Shown: positions 54,178-55,719 of the stretch, in pieces
Position numbering within the stretch: position 1 is the first letter of the stretch
Layout: each line of letters starts with the position of its first letter
Origin: Anaerofustis stercorihominis
GTDB lineage: Bacteria > Bacillota > Clostridia > Eubacteriales > Anaerofustaceae
Length of the DNA stretch: 64,000 nucleotides
Reading direction: 5' to 3'
Assembly (NCBI GenBank): GCA_015058295.1
Contig: SVCP01000004.1
Location: forward strand, 4,040-68,039
Position numbers and translations under genes: made by a program
The notes under the pieces: model-generated
Seen by the model: the letters and a program-made list of their open reading frames with translations, nothing else
Databases searched by the model: none
What the model was told of the DNA's origin: nothing

Positions 54178-54287
54178 CCCCGCCGCAGGCGGCAGGAGAT
54201 AAAATCCTGCGGATTTTTTCTCCTGCCTGCTCAAAGGCAAAGCCTTTGAGTGTGGGATGCAAAGCATCACACAGCCTGCGGCGGGGC
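54178..54287 (+). repeat. ~110-nt cloverleaf-type repeat, copy 1
   Basis: Closing stem CCGCCGCAGGC / GCCTGCGGCGG encloses three hairpins. It directly abuts the stop codon of the 145-aa gene. Confidence 0.85.
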
Positions 54288-54725
54288 TCATTCACAGCAC
54301 ATCTTTTTCGTTACATAGCGCATCACTCTGCGTCTTTTCCGCGGAAAGGTTTTTTCTGTAAATTCATAAAGCACTTTCCCGTTGACCGTTTTTGCATAAT
54401 GCGGGTCTATATTTACCTGTTGGAATATCCTTTCCGCCATATTTACATACAATCTGCACTTGTCGTAATAATAAAACCTCTCGGATATGCTTCTCCTTCC
54501 TCCGAATATGCTGACAGCGGCTCTGAAACAATAATACTCCACACCCATATGTATGCAGGCACGATTTCCGTATGATGATGCGAATATGAGCATTTCTTCG
54601 AGCTCACGGGCTTCGTTTTCGGTGTATTTCATGGAAAATATCTGCCGGAGGCGCTTTTCGCAGAATCGTTCAGCCATTCTGAGGTCTCCGTTGTATGCGA
54701 GAACTTTTAATTGATCAGTATTCAT
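54288..54725 (-). CDS. hypothetical protein (145 aa)
   Basis: Strong GGGAGG RBS. No recognisable motif. Confidence 0.55.
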   Translation of the reverse strand: MNTDQLKVLAYNGDLRMAERFCEKRLRQIFSMKYTENEARELEEMLIFASSYGNRACIHMGVEYYCFRAAVSIFGGRRSISERFYYYDKCRLYVNMAERIFQQVNIDPHYAKTVNGKVLYEFTEKTFPRKRRRVMRYVTKKMCCE

Positions 54726-54876
54726 AAATAACCTCCCGATATATATATTTGCGGATTCATATAGTATACTTTTTGATAAATGTCATCATAGACTTTTGAC
54801 ACTTAATATTTCAGATTAAAATTCATATATTTTTAGTAATTTGGTCGGCTCAGAAGCCGATTATTTAATTTTTCGC

Positions 54877-54921
54877 AAAAAAAATAACAACTATCAAAAG
54901 GTATACATTTTGATAGTTGTT
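54877..54921 (-). terminator. rho-independent terminator of the recombinase gene
   Basis: Perfect 14-bp arms AACAACTATCAAAA / TTTTGATAGTTGTT (54886-54921), followed on the minus strand by ATTTTTTTT. Confidence 0.75.
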
Positions 54922-55534
54922 AACCCGGTATGCTGTTGTGAGTGAGGCGGTGTTCTTTGAGCCTTCGGTAAAATGTGGATTTGCTCATTTCGCATTTGCC
55001 TGATGCTTCGTCGATGGAAAGCATTCCGTCCTGCCACATACTGACGATATTCTCAAAATCTTCCGGCACGCATTTTTCGGGTCTGCCGAAGCGGACACCT
55101 CTTTTCTTTGCGGAGGCTATACCTTCACACTGACGTTTTTTGATGTTCTGTCTTTCGGTGTCTGCCACAAAAGAGAGAATCTGCAGGACAAGATCCGCGA
55201 TGAATGTGCCCATAAGGTCTTTGCCCACTCTCGTATCAAGCATAGGCATATCCAGCACGCAGATATCCACGCCGATATCTTTGGTGAGGATCCTCCATTG
55301 TCTCTGAATTTCTTCGTAGTCTCTGCCGAGCCGGTCTATGCTCATAATATAGAGCATATCGCCTTTTGTGAGCATATCCATCATTCTGATGTATTCGGGG
55401 CGGTGAAAATCCTTTCCCGATTGTTTGTCGATGAACAGTCTGTCAATCTTCAGTTTCTGCATGGCATCTTTCTGTCGGTCTTCGTTCTGATCCGCAGAAG
55501 ATACTCTTATATATCCGTAAGTTTTCCCGGACAT
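54920..55534 (-). CDS. small serine recombinase (resolvase/invertase family)
   Basis: N-terminal [14 protein letters not shown] with the catalytic Ser, SIDRLGR, and a C-terminal HTH segment. Confidence 0.9.
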
Positions 55535-55610
55535 AGTAACCTCCTTTTTTCTTTATGATACATAATATACTCCATGACATTCAACGACATATTTTATTTT
55601 TTTGTGTGGG

Positions 55611-55719
55611 CCCGCCGCAGGCGGCAGGAGATAAAATCCGCAGGATTTTTTCTCCTGCCTGCTCAAAGGCAAAGCCTTTGAGGGTGTGATGCCTTGCATC
55701 ACACAGCCTGCGGCGGGGC
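55611..55719 (+). repeat. 109-nt cloverleaf-type repeat, copy 2
   Basis: Same orientation as copy 1. The 12-bp closing stem and all three hairpins are perfectly paired. Confidence 0.85.

Follow-up and report, generated by a model that had tools for sequence, protein, structure and literature searches.

Dispersed four-way palindromes in Anaerofustis stercorihominis, probably a rearrangement-prone DNA-level repeat family, and the predicted invertase switch that two of them bracket

Why do two nearly identical 109-nt sequences, each able to fold into a four-way junction, bracket a small serine recombinase gene and an orphan gene in Anaerofustis stercorihominis? The question arises in a window of 64,000 nucleotides (positions 4,040 to 68,039 of contig SVCP01000004.1, assembly GCA_015058295.1), where an earlier note, made from the sequence alone, had taken the two repeats, here called cloverleafs, for possible folded-DNA recombination sites paired with that recombinase. 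The answer that we favor, with a probability of about 0.6, is that the cloverleafs are dispersed four-way palindromes acting at the DNA level, similar to repetitive extragenic palindromes (REPs) and transposable elements of the miniature inverted-repeat type (MITEs) and prone to rearrangement, and that the pair in the window was duplicated locally and recently around an invertase switch to which it is unrelated. The genome in which they lie is a 1.83-Mb draft of 91 contigs with 41.5% GC, the window belonging to the contig that we call C82.

Both 109-nt direct copies are real, the first starting one base later than had been reported (54179, not 54178):

54179..54287, no strand assigned: cloverleaf copy 1, a closing stem plus three hairpins forming a four-way junction, palindromic on both strands
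55611..55719, no strand assigned: cloverleaf copy 2 (93% identity with copy 1), located where the recombinase gene and a methyltransferase gene start divergently

Folded as single-stranded DNA on either strand, the two copies form a closing stem of 12-13 bp that encloses three hairpins (HP1 to HP3), with a free energy of -51 to -54 kcal/mol against an average of about -21 kcal/mol for dinucleotide shuffles (z of -10 to -12; 0 of 200 shuffles as good). The 8 differences over 109 nt fall mainly in the loops with one stem mismatch, as the earlier note described. Three of them, in the HP1 loop (TGC in copy 1, GCA in copy 2), amount to an exact reverse-complement flip of the inner 17-nt palindrome, while the three in the HP3 loop (AAA in copy 1, CTT in copy 2) correspond to one flip and one change or to three changes. 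The last two, both substitutions, fall in the HP3 stem or next to it, and the G/A mismatch in copy 1 results from one of them. Loop flips are a product of hairpin-mediated template switching or arm-to-arm recombination. The two copies form the most similar cloverleaf pair in the genome and, because every other copy differs completely in hairpins 1 and 3, they are best regarded as recent sisters. The pair would then represent the youngest local duplication of one cloverleaf, the copies marking the two ends of a 1.32-kb transcription unit. At 41%, the GC content of the enclosed unit matches that of the genome; no terminal inverted repeats were found in this insert, and comparison of the flanks of the two copies by eye revealed no shared direct or inverted short repeats, that is, no signature of duplicative inversion or target duplication.

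The window copies belong to a genome-wide family. The 11-nt core of the closing stem occurs 42 times in the genome against about 0.16 occurrences expected, and pairing of arms within 200 nt yields 19 elements of 90-117 nt, each consisting of a closing stem and exactly three hairpins joined by linkers of 0-2 nt. The covariance-model search that the earlier note had proposed, carried out with a model (R1) built from an alignment (A1) of the closing stem and middle hairpin, contributes four further elements and brings the family to about 23 copies of 84-116 nt. Common to the family is a core in which GCCGCAGGC on the 5' arm pairs with GCCTGCGGC on the 3' arm, together with a related middle hairpin. 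The closing stem is 10-14 bp long and begins (G)C(C)CGCCGCAGGC. At its junction-proximal end lies an invariant core that spans 9 nt of the 5' arm and 10 nt of the 3' arm, with GCCGCAGGC (5' arm) and GCCTGCGGCG (3' arm) unchanged in 19/19 aligned copies.

The outer pairs of the closing stem and HP2 covary, with 93.8% of alignment cells paired and 36 cells changed on both sides (neither value is reached in any of 500 shuffles), and sliding the partners by 1-3 columns as a control reduces pairing to only 35-46%. Hairpins 1 and 3 are unrelated between copies in both sequence and length, yet they are almost perfectly paired. Hairpin arms of at least 13 nt have no second occurrence in the genome, and complete HP2-type hairpins are found only inside cloverleafs. 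The possibility that the hairpin arms are copies of other genomic sequence was rejected, two 12-nt arms having just one isolated match each. One further pair, C17:30776 and C17:33153, has identical closing stems and HP2, an HP1 differing by one compensated pair, and a replaced HP3, so that it looks like an older version of the duplication in the window.

All cloverleaf copies are intergenic, many of them 8-50 nt past a stop codon between co-directional or convergent genes, and in 8 of the 23 a run of T5-9 ends 2-8 nt before the element, as if the cloverleafs had lodged just after terminator tails. These positions, together with the very stable folds, favor a role in RNA, in which the elements would be transcribed 3'-untranslated or intercistronic structures that, in the manner suggested for REPs, end transcription, stop exonucleases or stabilize the ends of mRNAs. 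Other properties make such a role improbable. Base pairs over the 23 elements number 961 Watson-Crick against 10 G-T, so that G-U pairs would account for about 1%, and both strands fold equally well; triloops dominate (3 nt in 49 of 69 hairpin loops); and the elements have no downstream T tract of their own. Their orientation relative to neighboring genes is mixed, with copy 2 and the element at C37:33747 sitting between divergent gene starts. A match to a known Rfam family, which the earlier note had held out as an alternative, was not obtained: neither window copy has an Rfam match at E values up to 1, and at 13 loci holding other copies no match at gathering score overlaps any cloverleaf, a sub-threshold match to RF02902 (38.8 versus 39.8 bits) overlapping the flank of one other copy. 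Because of the few G-T pairs, the 3-nt loops, the folding of both strands, the mixed orientation and the lack of an Rfam match, the palindromy appears to be kept at the level of DNA and not as an RNA gene, and the cloverleafs probably act as DNA. The suggestion that structure and not sequence is what is maintained in the repeats is borne out by the covariation, the scarcity of G-T pairs and the dominance of 3-nt loops.

The serine recombinase enclosed by the window pair has dyad sites of its own, arranged with the neighboring features as follows:

54920..55534, minus strand: small serine recombinase of 204 aa, with an N-terminal catalytic domain (PF00239, E 2.8e-26) and a C-terminal helix-turn-helix (weak HTH_28 match)
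54891..54916, no strand assigned: full hix-like dyad site of 26 bp, in which 12-nt half-sites lie on both sides of a central AT, right after the recombinase stop codon (54920-22)
54780..54890, no strand assigned: predicted invertible segment of about 111 nt, with promoter-like hexamers on both strands and a small hairpin
54754..54779, no strand assigned: second hix-like site, one half near-perfect (GTATACTTTTTGATA, 14/15 identical to site 1) and the other degenerate, ending 28 nt before the start codon of ORF145
54288..54725, minus strand: ORF145, an orphan open reading frame (ORF) of 145 aa with a GGGAGG ribosome-binding site and its start codon at 54725, predicted helical

As had been noted earlier, the cloverleafs bracket exactly these two genes, both on the minus strand, and the stop codon of ORF145 abuts copy 1. 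The nearest solved relatives of the recombinase are Sin/Bin3 (2.9e-30), the gamma-delta and Tn3 resolvases, and the Gin invertase. Its homologues at 66-77% identity number in the thousands in gut Clostridia, where some sources label them Pin-like invertases, and those inspected adjoin large surface-protein genes or small genes and do not lie between palindromic repeats. The 15-mer common to the two hix-like sites occurs 3 times in the window, always at the recombinase sites, against 0.05 occurrences expected; read on the minus strand, the site at 54891-54916 also forms a terminator-like stem followed by a T run. In three homologous loci (L161, L163 and L223) a dyad site of 24-28 bp, with a consensus of approximately TGTCAAAAGGT-NN-ACCTTTTGACA, directly follows the recombinase gene, and after another 112-132 nt comes a second, shortly ahead of the gene that follows. 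This following gene encodes a 1505-aa leucine-rich-repeat/S-layer-homology (LRR/SLH) surface protein at L161, a 1346-aa fn3 protein at L163, and at L223 a 77-aa protein followed by a DUF2971 protein. The central dinucleotides of the two sites are opposite in all three loci (AC versus GT), and the sites are therefore taken to be inverted serine-recombinase crossover sites. The window shows the same layout on its minus strand: stop codon, site, about 111 nt, second site and ORF145.

In its size of 204 aa, N-terminal catalytic domain, C-terminal helix-turn-helix and dyad sites of 24-26 bp with a 2-bp center, the recombinase unit resembles the Hin/Gin/Cin/Pin and Sin/beta systems, and the homologous loci resemble Hin/Gin switches in having two inverted sites 112-132 nt apart just upstream of a surface-protein or small gene. 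Unlike the Hin/Gin type, the recombinase gene lies outside the predicted invertible segment. In view of the recombinase's own conserved sites, the two-gene cassette is best read as an invertase, a predicted invertible switch and a switched orphan gene. The recombinase unit is thus most likely an ordinary invertible-promoter phase switch, as predicted from sequence, with ORF145 as the gene that it likely controls. ORF145 itself has no Pfam or NCBIfam family, has one remote homologue (43% identity) among 1.84 billion representatives, and gives a single-sequence AlphaFold model with a confidence (pLDDT) of only 60. In the homologous locus L223 (2121-2282), the metagenome contigs L227 and L228 end at the same point within the predicted invertible segment, at a third half-site-like TTTTGACAAT, where homopolymer lengths differ; the shared end may be an assembly break caused by heterogeneity.

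These sites bear directly on the proposal that the cloverleafs are substrates of the adjacent recombinase, which would excise or integrate the two-gene cassette through folded DNA. The proposal draws on the two near-identical direct copies that bracket exactly the recombinase unit, and on the lack of an equally similar pair elsewhere in the genome. It is nevertheless very improbable, as the classic-type dyad sites lie beside the gene both here and in homologues without cloverleafs, the inspected homologues do not lie between palindromic repeats, and some 21 other cloverleafs have no recombinase nearby. The genome contains two resolvase-family (serine) and two tyrosine (PF00589) recombinase genes in total, and only the window recombinase is near any cloverleaf; identified neighbors of other copies are Dxr, a histidine kinase/response regulator pair, an M18 aminopeptidase, an ABC transporter, fumarase, a MarR-family regulator, TsaD and HrcA. 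The empty-site check that the earlier note had suggested was run on JGI metagenome contigs, where no single-copy junction was found and the four contigs with the gene show the same arrangement. Hence the view of the cloverleafs as a dedicated site pair of the serine recombinase does not stand, given the recombinase's own hix-like dyads here and at three homologous loci. Nor does a linkage of the repeat to recombinases: it is a REP-like family of about 23 copies beside housekeeping genes, the outcome that the earlier note had named in advance as contradicting such a linkage. The window recombinase most likely acts on its predicted hix-like sites rather than on the cloverleafs, and its cassette should not be annotated as using them.

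The distribution of the cloverleafs is patchy. The exact closing-stem pattern has 18-22 matches in this genome, depending on core length, 2 in the sister species (genome G001, same genus), a single one in another genus of the family, and none in 38 more relatives; R1 finds 3 copies in G001, 1 in that other genus and 0 in those 38 relatives. Among 400 further sampled genomes of the class, six have one match each, while a reversed-pattern control gives one match in each of three genomes. Two unrelated metagenome-assembled genomes (MAGs) of small-genome Clostridia with 36-37% GC carry 2 and 4 four-way elements with the same 9-nt core, whose hairpins are AT-rich, conserved among their own copies and different from those found here. 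In a closing-stem scan with one genome per species, the matches listed come almost all from GC-rich genomes, and true four-way elements among the matches listed occur in two low-GC Clostridia MAGs. A scan of IMG/VR for the pattern gave 20 matches in viral contigs, 0 of them with the fold. At the start of a G001 contig (L155:1-90, start of G001 C15) lies the 3' part of a cloverleaf-like element with a variant closing stem, followed by a G-run motif. Because of this variant stem, searches with the exact core undercount the family in G001. This distribution is what one would expect from an element, mobile or self-propagating, that underwent a lineage-specific burst.

The cloverleafs share with the REPs, bacterial interspersed mosaic elements (BIMEs) and REP doublets forming hairpins (REPINs) of proteobacteria, which RAYT (TnpA-REP) Y1 transposases mobilize, the character of short, GC-rich, non-coding, intergenic multi-copy palindromes that often lie just after genes, conserve structure more than sequence and are presumably mobilized in trans. 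REP-type elements are targets or hot spots for rearrangement and for the insertion of insertion sequences (IS). Unlike REPs, which are single imperfect hairpins of 20-40 nt or pairs of these, cloverleafs comprise a closing stem and three perfect hairpins, bear no GTAG/CGTC tag at the foot of the closing stem or in the flanks, and are low in copy number (about 23) in a genome with no convincing gene for a REP-associated tyrosine transposase (RAYT). They are like MITEs in their length of around 100 nt, their lack of coding capacity, a closing stem that corresponds to terminal inverted repeats, and their patchy lineage-specific spread. They differ from MITEs in lacking a target-site duplication, since the 23 copies are abutted by direct repeats of just 0-2 bp, and in an interior of three perfect hairpins that vary between copies in place of a decayed IS. 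No parent IS with cloverleaf ends was found in the draft genome, where every core occurrence lies in a cloverleaf, in a hairpin module of the type 2 repeat described below or in coding sequence, and none bounds a transposase gene.

Three fragments of IS200/IS605 TnpA (PF01797) lie at contig ends, and their IS200-type hairpins are unrelated to cloverleafs. A weak RAYT-like fragment (21.5 bits on NF047646 versus a cut-off of 80) has an orthologue in G001 and is absent from genomes G011, G041 and G042, all three of which carry a cloverleaf element; as a weak match without co-occurrence with the element, it is not a convincing mobilizing enzyme. The corresponding Y1-transposase-like ORF (C8:8543-8827, at a contig end) has a counterpart with 68% identity in the sister species, inside a frame of 306 aa (G001 C73:12934-13212), and seems to carry other residues (PDRANFL) in place of the usual HUH histidines.

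A second dispersed repeat, type 2, occurs in the window at 53811-53982 (minus-strand sense) and about 52320-52381 (plus), and elsewhere in the genome on contigs C10, C23, C38, C43, C48, C49, C69 and C71, several copies terminating contigs. It is built of a mini-hairpin CCGCC-GCA-GGCGG, a variable GC-rich hairpin, AAGAAAA, a G-quadruplex-type (G4) run GGGTGGGCGGGTGGG and an AT-rich tail, about 60 nt long, that is conserved. The mini-hairpin is the closing-arm sequence of the cloverleaf folded on itself. Type 2 contexts hold 14 of the 18 G4 motifs of the genome. Cloverleafs at C23:6159-6250 and C50:25212-25310 are directly followed by G-run (G4-like) motifs, which suggests that the two kinds of repeat are modular relatives. 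Two inverted type 2 copies bracket a URO-D-family gene in the window, a gene that is located elsewhere in the sister species. Nearby in the window, the methionyl-tRNA synthetase gene (50024-52003, minus strand) has a T-box leader upstream of it (52037-52233, minus strand, 128.8 bits).

The association of cloverleafs with changes in gene order was assessed over about 130 kb by comparison with G001 in BLASTN blocks (matches 65-93% identical), the regions being chosen around cloverleafs with the addition of two cloverleaf-free control regions (3-4 breaks per 20 kb). Cloverleafs coincide with collinearity breaks in 12 of 13 assessable cases, the element at C17:21360 being left out of the 13 as it falls at G001 contig ends. 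By the author's count, controls included, about 30 breaks occur among about 125 genes in the 130 kb, corresponding to about 24% of intergenic regions, and at this rate 12 of 13 has a binomial probability of roughly 1e-6 to 1e-7, a rough estimate. The elements at C17:30776 and C17:33153 form the exact ends of a 2.3-kb histidine kinase/response regulator segment whose orientation with respect to dxr and the M18 peptidase gene is reversed in G001. The pair on C83 brackets ABC-transporter genes that are located elsewhere in G001, the pair on C77 brackets a block that is arranged differently there, and the window pair sits between genes spread over three different G001 contigs. On contig C61, one element (C61:35364) lies at a 4.3-kb indel, two (C61:50758 and C61:98538) each at one end of an inverted block, one (C61:81692) at a transposed junction, and one (C61:43263) in a collinear region. 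Since cloverleafs coincide with breakpoints and one pair bounds an inversion, they may act as recombination-prone sites for another process. One inverted block of 0.8 kb is bounded on one side by a cloverleaf and on the other by a separate repeat of about 205 nt (L233:16660-16866, C61:49660-49866 in this genome), which occurs in at least 8 other places in this genome (76-95% identity) and several in G001, and has no Rfam match at E values up to 0.01.

The breakpoints and the conserved stem raise the further possibility, which we consider unlikely, that the cloverleafs serve as sites for a new structure-specific system that cuts, copies or exchanges at folded junctions and so moves or inverts the operon-sized modules bracketed, including the invertase switch of the window. 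Its logic would be comparable to that of integron attC cassettes or pdif modules, and it would drive rapid loss of gene order in the lineage. The invariance of the closing-stem core in all 19 aligned copies, and its retention as 9 nt in two unrelated MAGs with different hairpins, are consistent with such a system. In addition, the family includes four pairs with a spacing of 1.4-4.2 kb, and every pair encloses a single module the size of a transcription unit: the invertase switch, a two-component system, an ABC transporter or a block from MarR to TsaD. Each of these modules is inverted, differently arranged, elsewhere or absent in G001, while synteny breaks at 12/13 cloverleafs. Non-sister copies moreover share only 13-21 nt of identity, too short for the efficient recombination by RecA, which needs longer identity. 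Set against this, the search for a candidate enzyme turned up none, as neither the two tyrosine nor the two serine recombinases lie beside any of the other cloverleafs, with the IS200/IS605 TnpA fragments carrying unrelated hairpins; no circular or empty-site forms were seen in the JGI metagenome contigs; one cloverleaf lies in a fully collinear region; and the four pairs exceed chance modestly, about 1.2 being expected by our own Poisson estimate. Like attC, IS200/IS605 and IS91-type sites, the cloverleafs favor structure over sequence, have a conserved core at the foot of the stem, and are proposed to be active as a folded single strand. Unlike attC, a single bulged hairpin with R and L boxes that stands in cassette arrays beside the intI gene for a tyrosine recombinase, they are four-way junctions without arrays or an adjacent IntI, and unlike IS200/IS605, whose hairpins flank the TnpA gene, they adjoin no TnpA.

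For dispersed, REP/MITE-like cloverleafs, the reading that we prefer, the following course can be proposed. The elements would work as folded single strands or extruded cruciforms, whose conserved closing stem would be read by a putative trans-acting activity that spreads them into intergenic DNA, with insertion often just after T-rich terminator tails. Once in place, they would be hot spots for breakage, template switching and rearrangement. The existence of the family, its fold with the covariation, where its members lie, the conserved sites of the recombinase and the coincidence with breakpoints are observed, whereas we infer the action at the level of DNA, the mobilizing activity, a causal role in rearrangement, and the actual inversion of the switch.

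Several observations weigh against this account. None of the 23 copies has a target-site duplication longer than 2 bp, and scanning the JGI metagenome contigs for the exact junction revealed no empty site, so that mobility is suggested only by the patchy distribution. The four same-species metagenome contigs carry the filled arrangement with unvaried repeats, and an empty site is undefinable in G001 because that genome is not syntenic upstream of the methyltransferase gene. No mobilizing enzyme for the cloverleafs was identified, the RAYT-like fragment being a weak match that does not accompany the element in other genomes. For the switch, the second window site has one degenerate half and both sites center on a symmetric AT, and only one orientation is seen in all 4 contigs of the window locus and in all 13 contigs of the two homologous loci compared. 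As to the rearrangements, G001 is a fragmented draft, the breakpoints are imprecise ends of BLASTN blocks, and no outgroup polarizes the events; the association with breakpoints could reflect a shared preference for permissive intergenic DNA instead of causation.

Short palindromic repeats such as REPs and MITEs shape bacterial genomes, and those described are simple hairpins. Searches of Rfam and of the full-text literature returned no description of repeats that form a tight four-way junction in which one arm is invariant and the hairpins are changed wholesale yet perfectly paired. The cloverleaf family marks most of the examined differences in gene order from the sister species, including both ends of an inversion. 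If the link to breakpoints is causal, the cloverleafs would offer a concrete origin, open to testing, for the rearrangement of genomes in gut Clostridia, and they might point to a new enzyme that reads folded DNA.

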